The notes under the pieces: model-generated | Database searches by the model: none | What the model was told of the DNA's origin: nothing | Seen by the model: the letters and a program-made list of their open reading frames with translations, nothing else | Position numbers and translations under genes: made by a program | Assembly: GCF_001447785.1 (NCBI RefSeq) | Contig: NW_015169277.1 | Span: forward strand, 62,001 to 126,000 | Direction: 5' to 3' | From: Gekko japonicus | Taxonomy: Eukaryota | Length of the DNA stretch: 64,000 nt | Part shown: positions 1,454 through 40,541 of the stretch, one piece after another | How the letters are laid out: each line of letters opens with the position of its first letter | Position numbering within the stretch: position 1 is the stretch's first letter

Positions 1454-1802
1454 GGAGCTGCAGTGGCTCAAGTGGTTAAGACGCTGAACTGGAGGCTGTG
1501 GAAGGTCAGTAGTTCAGCAGTTCGAGACCCGAGTTGCCACATGATGGAGTGAGCTCCTGTCTCTGGACCCAGCTCCTGCCAACCTAGCAGTTCGAAAGCA
1601 AGAAATTGCAAGTAGATAAATAGGTACCACTTCAGTGGGAAGGTAACAGCATTCCGTGTGCCTTGGTGTTTAGTCATGCTGGCCACATGACCACGGAAAA
1701 GTCTTCGGACAGCGCTAGCTCTTCGGCTTTGGAACGGAGATGAGCACCGCAACCCTAGAGTCGGACTCGACTGGCTTTCGAGCAAGGGAACTTTTACCTT
1801 TT
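1454..1802 (+). mobile_element. Sauria SINE (Squam1), full length
   Basis: tRNA-like head GGAGCTGCAGTGGCTCAAGTGG...GTTCGAGACC, (ACCTTT) tail, 13-bp TSD TATTCTTTACTGA at 1441-1453 and 1803-1815. Confidence 0.92.
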
Positions 1803-2019
1803 TATTCTTTACTGATGAGATTGCTGCTGCACAATTCCCTGCCTTTAAGGTGGTACAGACCTCCTTAAATCTGAAGTTTGAAAAGGGGGAGGAAATTGTG
1901 GAAAGGATGAAAACTTGAGAAAGAGCAAGTGGAAACAGACCATGACAGGGCAACAGAGAAGCTACTGTTTCACCAATACACTGCCGCCGAAAATTGGCGG
2001 AGACACCATCAGGGTGCAA

Positions 2020-2255
2020 GCGGGCCCTGGGAAGAAAACTGGTTATCTGCCGCTTTGGAACTTACGTCGTTGGTCTGGATCCACCCTACCGGAACCCATC
2101 TTGGAACTGGGAACATCTGAGCACCAGCACTTTGTTGTATTATTGATATGTTTTTATTCTGTTTTTAATTGTTTTAAATATGGCTTTTGCCCCAGTTGTT
2201 AGCCACCCTGAGCTTTAGGGGAGGGCGGGATATAAATCAAATTATAAATAAATAA
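2020..2255 (+). mobile_element. L2-like LINE 3' end
   Basis: T-rich tract then GTTAGCCACCCTGAG...GGAGGGCGGGGATATAAAT...AATAAATAAA, typical squamate L2 tail; 5' boundary uncertain. Confidence 0.5.
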
Positions 2256-5079
2256 ATTTTGAAAAAAGAGGGGAAAGAACAATATAACTCACAGGGTGGG
2301 GCAGGGGGGAGATAAAAATGTGCAAAAAAATAATAATCCCCACACAGGAAAGATCCACAGGGGGCAGTAAACAAATGTGTGAATTGACACTCAGTTGGTT
2401 CTGCATAGGCCCTTGACAGCCTGTGCATTTCCAAACATGCTTCAGAATCCTATACATTGCACAGGAATTCCACAGCAAATGAGAAGAGGCCATAAGACTT
2501 CTCCAAAGGTGTCTCTAGTTCAGGTCTAAGAGGAACCAAAAGTGTTTTCAAATTTAGTTTAATTTAATTTACACATCAGGAAAGATTACAAAGTCCTATG
2601 ACATCAAGGCAGTGTTGGGGGTGGGGGTGGCCATCTTTCTAATGTGACATTAAAACTACACCACATCGGAGAATCACCGACTTTGCATTAGTGGAACCTC
2701 AACCAATTTTCCCAGAAAGGCCTTAATCATGATAGTAAGTATCCAAAAACTTCAGGGAAACATTTTTTCCTTGGTAAACCCTCCTTAGGAAAGCCAAGAA
2801 GATACTTCCCCCCATGTTCATTAAACAATGGCATTGTAGAAATGCATCTCCCCTCCTCCTTGTAAATAAAATGGGCTCAAAAAGGTTAGATAAGAGCAGA
2901 GGAAGACAGATTCTTCTCTACTTCCTGGAGTTTACAAACTCTGATGGAAGGCAGTTGGACTGAACCCCCTAGGAACAGAGGGAGAACGAATTCTGAACAG
3001 GACAAACCTGGGGGGGGGGTACGATCCTTCCCCCCTCCATCTCCTGCCTCCCTGCTGACATGGGCTGGGACTGAATCACTGCTAACTTGGATCAAGTGGG
3101 CAAATATTAGGAAAATGTGATAAGAAAACACAGAGCCTGAAACCCCAATTTCCTTCTCATTTCTGCACGGCGTGTGGCATAAAAATAGACTTCCTTTGTT
3201 TCCATAATGGATTTTTACAAAGCGGCCGAGGTGGGTTGGTAGCTTTTTGCAATCTGACAAAACAAATATTTCTTTTCACAGAAGACTACATATGAGTTTC
3301 CCCCACCATCACCCAAAAAATCTCAGAAAAAGGCTTTTCAGAACTCAATGCACGTCCATTCCTTTTTGCAACTCATTTTCCCCTCCTTTTTTTTTTTGTG
3401 ACAACCGAGGCAATAATTCACAGCTCACTGGGCCTCTTAAATATCCCCCTTTATATTTACATGGTAGGCATTCCCCCATTACCCAGCGGGGACCAGCTGT
3501 ACTGGCAGGGACTCGTTAAGGCATTCTTCAGATTTGGGGGGTTTAACATACCCCTTCTCTAGTCAGTATCTTTTTAAAAAGATACCCCCTTGCACAGCTA
3601 CTGTCTCAAAAAGTGAACAATAATATAACTGTGTCATTTTGTAATTTTGGGCTTCATCCAGACTCCCACATCAGGCCTTTTTAAAGCTCTGGTGTGTTTC
3701 TATCATGCTGAGGACTGCTATGGGCCCCCTCCCCCCCTCGCTTCCTCCCCCCCCCAATACGCGATTAAATGAGGTACTTGAGTTTTTGTGCCGAAACTTT
3801 TTATATGTGTATCTGCGCTCTGCCTTATGCACCGCAGTTAATTTAATCCAGAGGCATTCAGAAGTCTGGGAAAGAACAACATTTTCACCCACCGCTAAAT
3901 AATGAGAGCTTTTCTTAGAGGCCAAAAATGAACTTGAAAAGTGGAAGGAGAGAGAGGGGGGGAAACCTCCCTAACATATATACACACAGTACAAGAAAGA
4001 CACATTGTTTGGTTCCATAAAAGTGTTCTTTAGAAACCAATTTAGCAGTCAGGGTGCAGGATTAGCTGCTGGAATCCCTGGGTTCAAATGGCTTTATTAC
4101 CAACTCTCATTTAGTCCAGGATTGAAAAGAAGTACACGTATTCAATTACCAGTGGGCATCTTCGGGAGGGGGGGGGACACAGAAACTGAAATAGTAACAA
4201 AACTGAACTTTTAGTTAACTCTGGATCTGGGTAGCTTTGCCCCCCCCCCTGCGTTAAGTGCTTACAGATGCCTGCTTCCGTCAAGTTAATTATGCCCCCC
4301 CAAAATCATTTTGCCTTTTTAATTCTGAACATGTAATGTAATTATTCAAACTCTATGTCTTGAGAGATGATTCTTAGTCACTCCATTCATAATTCCGTAC
4401 CCATGTAAAATTCTTCTCATGCATATATGGTTCCCTCCACAGCCATCTTCTTTCTAACGTAAAAACTCCAGTATCTTGAATTTTTTTTAAAAAAACAGAA
4501 GATGCTGTGTTTCTCCATCGTTTGATTCCATAATTCCATCAGAAATAGGACCAAAAAGGTCTGGTATCTGCGTGGATATGGGTAACATTAGCTATTGTCC
4601 CGTTTCTGAGGCCAATTTTATAGCTGAAGTTAACATTTCAGTTAATTACTTAATCACTTCTTGTTTGTTCTTCAGTGGATGTCCCCTGGCCCTAACCCCA
4701 GATTCTTTAAATGCTTAATCTGCTTCACACATACAGCACTGATCCAAGACAACAGGAGGGCTTTCAACCAACTATGCAAAATACAATCCCTCATTGCTAA
4801 TGATGTCACAGACACTATCCAATATGGTGCCGCCTTATTTTACTTGCAGCAGCATGCTATAGCGTTTGAGTGCTGCAAAAATGCAGTAACCTCACATCAA
4901 ATGCCTAATCATTAAATACAACATCTGGATCCTGCAGAGTTTGCTAAACAGTCATGATTTCTGGGAACTGCAGATGTGAAGGATTCCCTGTTATAGATCT
5001 TCAGCCCCCTCCAACAGAACTACAGTTCCCAGTATCCCCTGGGATAAGAACACAACACTTTAGCCAGTTTAAGCCTGTA

Positions 5080-10198: not shown

Positions 10199-10405
10199 CA
10201 GTGTTTCCTCTAAGCCGAGTTAGTGTGAGCTAGCTCACAGTTTTTTTAGCCTCCAGCTCACACATTTTTGTCTTAGCTCAGGAAGGATGGCTCTGGAGCA
10301 AGCTAATTTATGCAGTAGCTAAATCGCTTGCTCACAACTTTAATGCCAATAGCTCACAAAGTAGAATTTTTGCTCACAAGACCCCACAGCTTAGAGGGAG
10401 CATTG
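10199..10405 (+). mobile_element. hAT MITE family A (~206 bp, TIR CAGTGTTCCCTCTAAG)
   Basis: TIRs plus 8-bp TSD CTTACGAG/CTTATGAG. Confidence 0.9.
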
Positions 10406-13740: not shown

Positions 13741-14092
13741 AAAGTAAAGGTAAAGGTTCCCTTGCTCGAAAGCCAGTCGAATCAGACTCTAGGGTTGCGG
13801 TGCTCATCTCCGTTTCAAAGCCGAAGAGCCAGCGCTGTCCGAAGACGTTTCCGTGGTCATGTGGCCGGCATGATTAAACACCAAGGCGCACGGAACGCTG
13901 TTACCTCCCCAATGAAGTGGTACCTATTTATCTACTTGCAATTTCTTGCTTTCGAGCTGCTAGGTTGGCAGGAGCTGGCACTAGAGATGGGAGCTCACTC
14001 CGTCATGCGGCACCCAGGTCTCGAACTGCTGAACTACCGATCTTCCACAGCCTGCAGTTCAGCGTCTTAACCACTTGAGCCACCGCAGCTCC
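13741..14092 (-). mobile_element. Sauria SINE (Squam1), full length
   Basis: Near-identical to 1454-1802; TSD CCACCTAGTGGTA at 13728-13740 and 14095-14107. Confidence 0.92.
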
Positions 14093-36838: not shown

Positions 36839-37186
36839 GGAGCTGCGGTGGCTCAAGTGGTTAAGACGCTGAACTGCAGGCTGTGGAAGATCGGTAGTTC
36901 AGCAGTTCGAGACCCGGGTGCCGCATGACGGAGTGAGCTCCCGTCTCTAGTTCCAGCTCCTGCCAACCTAGCAGTTCGAAAGCAAGAAATTGCAAGTAGA
37001 TAAATAGGTGCCACTTCAGTGGGAAGGTAACAGCGTTCCGTGAGCCTTGGTGTTTAGTCATGCCGGCTACATGACCACGGAAACGTCTTCGGACAGCGCT
37101 GGCTCTTCGGCTTTGAAACGGAGATGAGCACCACAACCCTAGAGTCGGATTTGACTGGCTTTCGAGAAAGGGAACCTTTACCTTTT
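36839..37186 (+). mobile_element. Sauria SINE (Squam1), full length
   Basis: TSD TAATGTACAA at 36829-36838 and 37187-37196. Confidence 0.92.
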
Positions 37187-38248: not shown

Positions 38249-38848
38249 GCATTTTTCTCCTTTGCCTATCACTCTCTTAAGTACTCATTTTAAAAATCGT
38301 TCCCCCTTTTTTTGCCTTTTCAAAAACACTCCCCTGAAATGGATAGGGATTTTCAATGCCTTGGTCACCTGGAAGAAACTTTTAATCACCACAGGTGTCT
38401 CACAACTGTCAACTACACCTAGTGTTCCCTCTAAGCTGAGTCAGTGTGAGCTAGCTCACAGTTTTTTAGCCTCTGGCTCACACATTTTTTAGTCTGTCTG
38501 TAGCCAAAGAAAACAGTAAGAGTCCAGGGGCACCATAAAGACTAACCAAATTTGTGGCAGGGGTAGTGTCAGCATGCTGCCATTGTGTTTTTAAGCATTT
38601 TTCTCCTTTGCCTACCACTCTCTTAAGTACTCATTTTAAAAACAGTTCCCCCTTTTTCGCATTTTCAAAAACACTCCCTTGAAATGTATAGGGATTTTCA
38701 ATGCCTTGGTCACCTGGAAGAAACTTTTAATCACCACAGGTGTCTCACAACTGTCAACCACACTGTCCACTACACCTAGTGTTCCCTCTAAGCTGAGTTA
38801 GTGTGAGCTAGCTCACAGTTTTTTAGCCTCTGGCTCACACATTTTTTT
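38249..38848. repeat. ~240-bp duplication separated by a Penelope-like fragment
   Basis: 38249-38490 approximately equals 38595-38848 (including the MITE 5' half); filler 38491-38594. Confidence 0.9.
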
Positions 38849-38982
38849 CTTAGCTCAGGAAGGATGGCTCCAGAGCAAACTGATTTATGCAGGAGCCAAA
38901 TCACTCGCTCACAACTTTAACGCTCAGTAGCTCATGAAGTAGAATTTTTGCTCACAAGACTCCACAGCTTAGAGGGAGCATG
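38777..38982 (+). mobile_element. hAT MITE family A
   Basis: Full-length homolog of 10199-10405. Confidence 0.9.
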
Positions 38983-39059
38983 CATCTGTTTTCACTGTTG
39001 GGTGTCAGCTCTGGGATATGTAAAGGACAAGGCTCTCTCTCTCACACACCCCTGAGAGC

Positions 39060-39803
39060 CAATGCCCCCTCCAAGGGGTGGAGTCTTGTGAGCAAAAATT
39101 CTACTTTGTGAGCTACTAGCGTTAAAGTTGTGAGCGAGTGATTTGGCTCCTGCATAAATCAGTTTGCTCTGGAGCCATCCTTCCTGAGTGAAGACAAAAA
39201 GGGGAGCGGTGGCGCAGGCAGTAAGGGAAGCCTGCTTTAAAACCTGGGCGAGCACCTTCGGCTGTTCGAATCCCCACCGCGGCCAGGGTGAGCTCCTGGC
39301 CCTATGTCCCAGCTCACGTTCACCCAGCGGTTCGAAAGCCCGTTAAAGGGTGAGTAGATAAAATGGGGACCTGCTACTAGAGCAGGAGGGCACCCACCTC
39401 CAGTGTAGCGGCGACGGCGGACAAGCGGAGAACGGAGGAACGATGCGGCGGCGGCGGAGGAAAGAATGGCGGCTGGCGAGGCGACGGGCAGGAACGGAGG
39501 CCGGATGAACGAGGTGCGGAGGCGGAGTGACGCGGCAGGCCGGAGCCTGACTTGGACAGAGGCCGCTGCGGAGCATGCGCAGAAGCGCGAAGTGGTCTGG
39601 GCCTAGAGAGTTATGTCTGCCGGTATGGACGGAAGTGCAAAGACCAGCGCCGAAAGAAGGGCCGCCGCCGGGACTGTCCCCTCGCAAGGAAAGATCTGCT
39701 ACAGAAGAAAGGGTGCCTGGTAAGGCTATAAATAAATAAATAAAAACCGGAGGCTAAAAAACTGTGAGCTAGCTCACACTAACTCATCTTAGAGGGAACA
39801 TTG
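39060..39803 (-). mobile_element. hAT MITE family A, inverted, interrupted by a SINE
   Basis: 8-bp TSD CTGAGAGC at 39052-39059 and 39804-39811; halves 39060-39200 and 39747-39803. Confidence 0.88.
39201..39746 (+). mobile_element. CpG-rich SINE with Sauria-related head, unrelated body and (TAAA)n tail
   Basis: A-box-like TGGCGCAGGCAG and B box GTTCGAATCC; blocks GTGAGCTCC, CCAGCTC, GTTCGAAAGC, GTAGATAAA collinear with Squam1; splits a MITE. Confidence 0.75.
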
Positions 39804-40541
39804 CTGAGAGCCCTCTTCCTCACACTGGGCACGAGGAGAGAGGCTTTCAAGACAGAATGGAAATATGGCAGCTTCATTTCCCAAATCTGCGGCAGCAGCA
39901 GAGAATCAGGCCTGAGGTGCCACTAAGGCACAGACACAAATGCTTAACGGTAACCCAGCAAATATCAAACCCTTTGTGCCCAGACTAAGCTCTTTTGTTT
40001 GCTTAAGGAGGATTTTCAGTTCTTCCTCTTTGACAATATAGAGCACCAGTTCACAGACCACACTCAGGTTTGAAGGAAAGAAGAACCAGATGGGAGAGCG
40101 GCTGAGAGGGGCAGCCCTACCCCCCCCCCCAAAAAAAAAGCCATATTGGTTTCCTTCAGACCCACTTCCATCCCTCTCTCTGCTTGGTGTTATCAGACCC
40201 AACCAGCCGCTCACTGGCTCACGGCGCCTGCAGGGCATGGATGGTGGAGCCAAGGCACTCTCCTGCGAGCTTCAGCTCATTAGCACCTGAACAACAAAAG
40301 GAACCTCGCGTCTCTTGCTGACTGCTCTCAAGGAGTCGGTGCTGCTATTCTTCGGCCTCTTCAAACGCCAACCTGAAAAGAAAAGATTCTCTCTCTCCCC
40401 AAGCCAGCAACGTTTCCGACCGGAGCAAACAAAATGAAACAAAACAGGTCCTACTTGAACACAAAATGGCTCTGGACTGAGCGCCCGTTGTTACATTCGC
40501 TACTGTGGCAGGCTCATGATGAATCCCAGCACACATCCAAA

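Follow-up and report, generated by a model that had tools for sequence, protein, structure and literature searches.

The 546-bp insert at 39201..39746 of the window, the whole stretch of 64,000 nucleotides of Gekko japonicus DNA analysed here, is very probably one copy, damaged at its 3' end, of a non-coding element of ~655 nt that is present many times in the genome. In this element a tRNA-like head is followed by a Sauria domain, a body rich in CpG and a stem-loop of L2 type; its RNA is likely made by Pol III and likely copied into DNA by an L2 reverse transcriptase.

The insert interrupts a hAT-type MITE of 206 bp, which spans 39060-39803 with the insert included. Its left half (39060..39200), aligned to the ~205-bp MITE copies at 10200, 47469 and 61173, and its right half (39747..39803) lie between identical 8-bp target-site duplications (CTGAGAGC) at 39052..39059 and 39804..39811. 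An 8-bp target-site duplication is a hallmark of hAT elements, and we take the host to be a hAT element from its own. In the alignment, TGTGTGAG occupies the insertion point in the neighbouring inverted MITE arm and in three other MITE copies of the window. Congruently, 656 reads of run X21 that derive from other MITE copies bridge the gap with TGTGTGAG, and the read cover over the left half of the host was very deep. The two MITE halves, the flanking duplication and the presence of TGTGTGAG in the other copies thus bear out the preliminary description, in which the insert splits the MITE exactly and removes 8 nt of it; the inserted copy itself (+ strand) has no target-site duplication. Beside the host, a second MITE copy (38777-38981) lies in inverted orientation, forming a long imperfect palindrome at ~38780-39800, and its end is taken in by a ~345-bp tandem duplication at 38249-38981.

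A search of the genome returned 4,333 candidates, and all 40 of those that were scored matched the insert at 83-100%. At least 159 exact matches to a motif of the window copy's branch were counted with none for the reversed-pattern control, all motif counts given here being lower bounds. A multi-copy SINE lineage, as originally proposed, is in agreement with these results. Full-length copies (n=20) measure 605-738 nt from head to tail end and have unrelated flanks. The family consensus is ~655 nt long; over its positions 2-529 the identity of the window copy is 97%. Beyond the point at which the window copy breaks off, 25 of the 29 other fetched copies have a further ~107 nt, which lead into a stem-loop and the (TAAA)n repeat; among the remaining four, two reach N, L009 has a different deletion and L023 is cut short. 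In the assembly, both the short 3' junction of the window copy and its exact form of 546 bp are found a single time. The description of a body ending directly in (TAAA)n is therefore not valid for the family. The window copy is 5'-complete and retains only the start of the conserved 3' block (39711..39727, + strand), ending after consensus position 529, and a (TAAA)n tail remnant (39728..39746, + strand), while the L2-type stem-loop that precedes the tail in other copies is missing.

These features indicate a broken member of the family that is probably inert. The simplest single event that would account for it is likely a skip at the 3' end during reverse transcription combined with the loss of 8 nt of target: after copying 19 nt of the tail, the enzyme would have jumped over ~107 nt of structured RNA, and 8 nt of the MITE would have disappeared when the joint was closed. 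Alternatively, the 107 nt could have been deleted after insertion or be missing through misassembly; among the matches listed, none of the contigs of X1 and X2 spans either insert junction. Lacking its 3' part, such a copy would probably give rise to no further ones. Other copies carry internal deletions or tandem duplications of their own (L009, L030, L036, L028, L008 and L071/L072), which suggests frequent slips near structured regions; in L009 the 3' block is lost from 4 nt past the window copy's break, and in L071/L072 the 3' 160 nt are duplicated. Short direct duplications of the first 20-30 nt of the head were observed in L014 (1266-1456), L143 and L167, and L014 also bears a second copy head-to-head with the first.

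We compared 20 copies of the closest subfamily with their consensus and found a divergence of 1.6% outside CpG sites and 11.1% within them, a seven times faster decay at CpG; the corresponding values for the window copy are 1.9% and 6.6%. At the rate of 0.0013 per site per million years given in a table note of PMC13295347, the subfamily divergence corresponds to roughly 12 million years, which is recent. The notion of a recently active lineage thus stands as far as low divergence is concerned (~1.6% at non-CpG sites), but drew no evidence for activity at present.

The family belongs to a much larger group. A motif of the central domain has at least 2,062 exact matches in the genome, and we refer to the elements that carry it as the clan; the clan tail motif has at least 931 and the Squam1 motif at least 42,718, with no match for any of the reversed controls. 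The first 100 Squam1 matches listed are nearly uniform, while the first 100 clan matches listed display many different hairpins at a variable site. Clan elements are roughly 600-740 nt long and have conserved ends and a fast-changing, CpG-rich body. Conservation across the clan extends to the head, the domain and a 3' block of ~130 nt. The bodies of 39 gap-free elements, 18 of which belong to the window's branch through the choice of query, fall into 16 clusters at 75% identity, and the distance from domain to tail varies from 319 to 505 nt. A sequencing-run index, which detects near-identical DNA only, matched 20 runs; 18 came from one organism, and the two others matched at 0.04 of words.

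To place Squam1 relative to these lineages, we built an unrooted tree from 30 head-plus-domain rows (38 were found and 8 near-copies dropped). Squam1 lies on a branch of 0.52 changes per site and a lineage with a UUCG hairpin on one of 0.47, and within the clan the distance between lineages reaches 0.47. A long Squam1 branch beside such deep divergence within the clan indicates that, judged from sequence, the split between the two is old. An unrooted tree gives no direction, and Sauria may equally have descended from an L2-tailed ancestor. The preliminary description of a young chimeric SINE needs correction, the family being one branch of an old and diverse clan. The UUCG-hairpin lineage is abundant, has an (ATT)n tail and is the most frequent among the matches listed (L147, L148, L150, L152, L160, L162, L165 and L166). 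It has different head arms and a shorter, less CpG-rich body, is as distant from the rest as Squam1, and may deserve a family name of its own.

The tRNA-like head occupies 39202..39279 (+ strand). Of the Pol III boxes reported in it, the B-box (GTTCGAATC, 39264-39272) is present at 39264, but the A-box (39210-39221) is partial and the strict pattern gives no match. ARAGORN called no tRNA in the heads of nine loci, the window copy among them, and an Rfam scan gave no tRNA match and three chance matches, all outside the insert. The head is predicted to fold into two arms closed by CGGTGG/CCACCG. This fold is predicted in most of 14 GCAGGC-type heads, with z from -0.3 (window copy) to -5.9, and a two-armed, stem-closed head is predicted in most lineages.

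Three copies in the window served as Squam1 references: 1454..1800 (+ strand, end approximate), with an ACCTTT-type tail and a 15-bp target-site duplication, 13746..14092 (- strand) and 36839..37185 (+ strand). We labelled them by their ACCTTT tails and target-site duplications, following the accounts in PMC13295347 and PMC10702118. The sequence blocks quoted at the outset as shared are present in all three. Similarity to Squam1 had been ascribed to the first ~170 bp of the insert. For consensus positions 85-190 this was confirmed, since none of 200 shuffles scored as well against any of the three copies, but for the head (1-85) the similarity is marginal (2, 6 and 13 of 200 shuffles score as well). 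Consensus positions 190-655 are similar to the three copies at the chance level of shuffles only. On sequence grounds the homology to Squam1 can thus be regarded as firm only for a central domain of ~105 nt, which in the window copy lies at 39281..39371 (+ strand).

Next, we studied the predicted fold of this domain. On the + strand of the window copy, the five-helix model comprises a hairpin, H1, with the fixed loop GTGAGCT (39281-39301), a stem (39316-19/39327-30), a variable hairpin (39338-39351) and two predicted sets of pseudoknot pairs (39290-94/39311-15 and 39322-26/39364-68). Over an alignment of 36 rows (29 clan and 7 Squam1), 94% of cells pair, compared with 86% when shuffled and 24-38% when slid. 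The model was drawn from the same sequences on which it was scored, the pattern used to select most clan rows prescribes two of the strands, and the rows are related, so these totals overstate the pairing. Both sides change in seven of seven pairs of H1, which RNAalifold also recovers, and this predicted hairpin is well supported by covariation. Pseudoknot 1 (GAGCT/AGCTC) shows no paired change among the 36 rows. Pseudoknot 2 (ACCYA/TRGGT) shows one, from C-G to U-A, a single event between the clan and Squam1; its end pair is disrupted in the window's branch, and decay of a CpG could account for the paired change in the neighbouring stem. Both pseudoknots are therefore weakly supported predictions.

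Downstream of the domain lie a hairpin that varies between lineages (39370-39386) and a conserved GGCACCC (39389-39395), together 39370..39395 on the + strand. GGCACCC is complementary to GGGTGCC at 39711-39717, on the far side of the body, and in one lineage the two strands, GCACCC upstream of the body and GGGTGC downstream, shift together to GCACAC/GTGTGC. When 13 of the 16 lineages were used (two were mis-anchored), the 5' and 3' body segments of the same lineage paired slightly better than segments combined across lineages (permutation p 0.04). Deeper pairing within the body is thus weak, so that only the 6-7-bp GCACCC/GGGTGC closure is kept. We also considered, and discarded, an exceptional folding of the whole RNA (z only -1.7 in sense and -1.4 in antisense) and a self-cleaving ribozyme of the HDV-like, hammerhead or twister kind, for which Rfam gave no match up to E 5. 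The core residues of these ribozymes were missing from the clan alignment on inspection. A scan of metagenomes for the central domain gave no match.

The body (39396..39710, + strand) is non-coding and hypervariable among lineages. In the window copy its CpG observed/expected ratio is 1.01 and its purine content 65%, against 0.34 and 49% for the window; in the consensus the ratio is 1.16. With no similarity to Squam1 in addition, the initial account of a purine-rich, CpG-retaining body unlike Squam1 was accurate. The fast CpG decay in copies, set against a consensus body so rich in CpG, suggests that the source copies escape or outrun decay. Six-frame translation of the copies revealed no conserved ORF. 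TTTT is absent from the consensus and from 16 of 16 lineage representatives, with AAAA occurring 46 times, which would suit transcription by Pol III; given an expectation of 0.3 from dinucleotide content, composition alone predicts this absence. To look for a Pol III transcript, we inspected RNA runs X21 and X22 and saw none: there was no pile of read starts, and the thin cover of ~1-16 reads per position was family-wide rather than locus-specific. The bias between mates corresponds to antisense in the usual stranded library and is compatible with passage in longer transcripts.

We then examined the 3' end against LINE 3' ends. With an ORF fragment abutting one copy (L044) as the query, we fetched 30 LINE ends and 4 longer loci. 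The fetched LINEs encode RVT_1 (E 9e-38) and Exo_endo_phos (E 9e-14), and in 18 of the 34 loci there is a match of 73-81% to the final 70 nt of the consensus. SINE and LINE form the same stem-loop, with paired changes between them (CCGCTCA/TGAGCGG vs CCGCCCT/AGGGCGG). We presume that these LINEs are L2 from a C-terminal motif, together with the Squam3 paper, Pfam and Atlas giving no clade. A target-site duplication of at least 7 nt was found in one of 20 full-length clan copies vs four of four Squam1 copies; the lone clan case is a match to the tail repeat, and shuffled flanks give 0-2. Moreover, 13 of 20 tail-anchored copies are 5'-truncated. The lack of duplications and the frequent truncation fit an L2 partner. 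PMC7983390 relates Squam3 to L2 and ascribes to it (TAAA)n and few target-site duplications; by eye, the clan tail resembles the Squam3 tails in the supplement of that paper. The partner LINE is thus likely L2-type, a label given by sequence likeness, and a match of only 73-81% does not reach the level of its subfamily. That the LINE partner differs from Bov-B, as had been surmised, is supported by the stem-loop shared with L2-type LINEs and by the absence of a Bov-B/(ACCTTT)n tail.

Several related observations were made. An L2-type LINE 3' end with the same class of stem-loop and a (TAAA)n tail lies in the window at 2000-2260 (+ strand). L2-type LINEs at L112-L140 and L171-L174 have ORF2 ends that are 82-93% similar and very different 3' UTRs; these begin with a conserved GC-rich part and finish in the stem-loop, and the divergent stretch between the two is reminiscent of the clan body. 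LINEs fetched through RVT_1 gave no match to the SINE in 30 loci, which mostly stop before the 3' UTR and so cannot serve as a control for other LINE clades. L101, L102 and L105-L109 carry a long RT-encoding ORF of up to 1,247 aa with no stops and with identical C-termini and scores; they make up a LINE family of very recent origin. At L044 (791-1655, G000:C9525) an L2-type ORF2 C-terminus with its stop codon is fused to SINE consensus positions 115-655, and no LINE 3' UTR lies downstream of the SINE part; this is probably a SINE-to-LINE template switch. At L054 (1290-1600, G000:C6) a Squam3-type head and body are joined to a clan tail over a shared GAAATTG, probably a chimera of two L2-dependent SINEs. 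Both joints fit template switches by one enzyme.

We propose that Pol III would transcribe a few source copies from the head, that L2 ORF2 would capture the RNA through its 3' stem-loop, and that priming on the (TAAA)n end would lead to insertion without a target-site duplication. Many source lineages would be active side by side. Selection would keep the folded head, the central domain and the 3' block, whereas the body would drift fast by slippage and exchange, and new copies would decay at CpG after insertion.

Other origins have to be weighed against this reading. The family could already be catalogued under another name, either in Repbase or Dfam or as a variant of Squam2, which we consider possible although doubtful. 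Gekkotan genomes have been screened for Squam1-3 according to PMC10702118 and PMC7983390, and de novo libraries would catch a repeat of 2,000 copies; however, Squam1-3 span only 190-350 nt in the account of PMC10702118, no mention was found in the papers searched, and the diversity of the bodies would scatter the clan over many small unlabelled models. We judge it unlikely that a Squam1 copy recently swapped its body and tail and so founded a young chimeric family. Squam1 and the clan do have the central domain in common, Squam1 is ~20 times commoner (at least 42,718 vs at least 2,062 motif matches) and module exchange is seen in this genome (L044 and L054), but Squam1 is uniform and stands 0.52 changes per site from a clan whose internal spread reaches 0.47, and the similarity of the heads is marginal.

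It is less likely still that the element is a non-autonomous LINE derivative, with a body from a LINE 5' UTR (Pol II promoter), a LINE 3' end and a captured Sauria-type 5' part. PMC5786205 describes bipartite elements whose bodies derive from the LINEs RTE and Vingi, the CpG observed/expected ratio of the body is 0.5-1.0 in 16 lineages, and the transcription-factor motifs GGCGGAG, GACGTC and ATGGCG exceed shuffles in the bodies (0, 0 and 2 of 100). These motifs stand at homologous places, so that their counts are not independent of descent. Against 64 LINE loci, few of which reach the 5' UTR, consensus positions 1-585 matched only the SINE itself and a Squam1 copy, and RTE and Vingi are the only suppliers of middle bodies found in the account of PMC5786205. 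As for a one-off template-switch chimera or a pseudogene processed from a cellular RNA, it is true that no second copy has exactly the 546-bp form of the insert, but the head-domain-body joint is common to all full-length copies and there are many diverged source lineages, no Rfam family and no conserved reading frame; this origin is barely conceivable. A single-copy chimera is excluded for the family, and a one-off event applies to the 3' deletion alone.

Our preferred reading, a multi-copy L2-tailed SINE of which the window copy is a damaged member, could be carried further. The Sauria central region could be an unrecognised SINE superfamily domain with two tandem pseudoknots, needed for retrotransposition with any LINE; in this lizard it would anchor a clan that counts among the longest known SINEs and in which co-existing lineages would combine a closed RNA scaffold with a fast, CpG-island-like body, perhaps for transcription of the source copies or escape from silencing. 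We offer this as speculation in which our confidence is low.

The clan has several of the features by which SINEBase defines a SINE: it is interspersed and shorter than 1 kb, has at least 100 copies, is non-coding and shares its 3' end with a LINE; of the A and B boxes of a tRNA-related head, the B-box matches and the A-box is partial. No description of it was found in the literature searched, and the suggestion of an undescribed family holds for those papers only. New SINE families are common, and this one is set apart by its length, its many parallel lineages and a shared domain that covaries. The kind of SINE is known, but we regard the insert's family as a likely undescribed lineage whose structured domain is of interest. 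Why SINE central domains are conserved is an open question, and here one domain serves two LINE partners in one genome; the diverged natural lineages reveal which base pairs are kept and thereby the exact mutations for a retrotransposition assay. Moreover, annotation would wrongly split clan copies into Sauria fragments and L2 ends.

Sauria/Squam1 and the clan share the ~105-nt central domain, which is 76% identical over 75 nt and has the same predicted helices; both have a tRNA-like head with a similar start, the likeness of the heads as a whole being marginal. They differ in length (about 600-740 nt in the clan, ~350 in Squam1), in the tail (an L2-type stem-loop with (TAAA)n or (ATT)n, as opposed to a Bov-B tail with (ACCTTT)n), in target-site duplications (none above chance, as opposed to 13-17 nt) and in diversity (many diverged lineages, as opposed to one uniform family of >42,000). 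Congruently, PMC13295347 describes the Sauria SINE with a Bov-B-derived 3' region and an (ACCTTT)n tail, and PMC10058329 gives its length as 360 nt. Squam3, which is Ther1/MIR-derived and L2-dependent, has the same class of 3' stem-loop, (TAAA)n and few target-site duplications, but the clan consensus is unlike the Squam3 head and CORE body of L054, the sole reference copy, hits its tail only, and is nearly three times as long. Squam2 and Anolis SINE 2, compared by length only, do not fit with their range of 190-350 nt. The clan domain may resemble the Meta domain. According to PMC4824008, MetaSINE carries a 66-bp Meta domain after the head. Bipartite SINEs (Bov-tA, SINE2-1_ACar, SINE2-2_ACar and SINE-1_Pmo) are likewise modular, have a long body and include reptile examples, but their bodies come from RTE or Vingi, and no LINE source was found for the clan body; 5S-Sauria, in PMC5786205, carries Sauria parts under another head. 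The central-domain superfamilies (CORE, V, Deu, Ceph, Meta, alpha and beta), among whose domains the accounts of PMC4824008 and SINEBase do not name that of Sauria, reuse a domain with different LINE tails (PMC4824008). Like them, the clan has one conserved domain directly after the head, and it is longer than almost all catalogued SINEs, which measure 75-662 nt without the tail in the SINEBase account of 2012.
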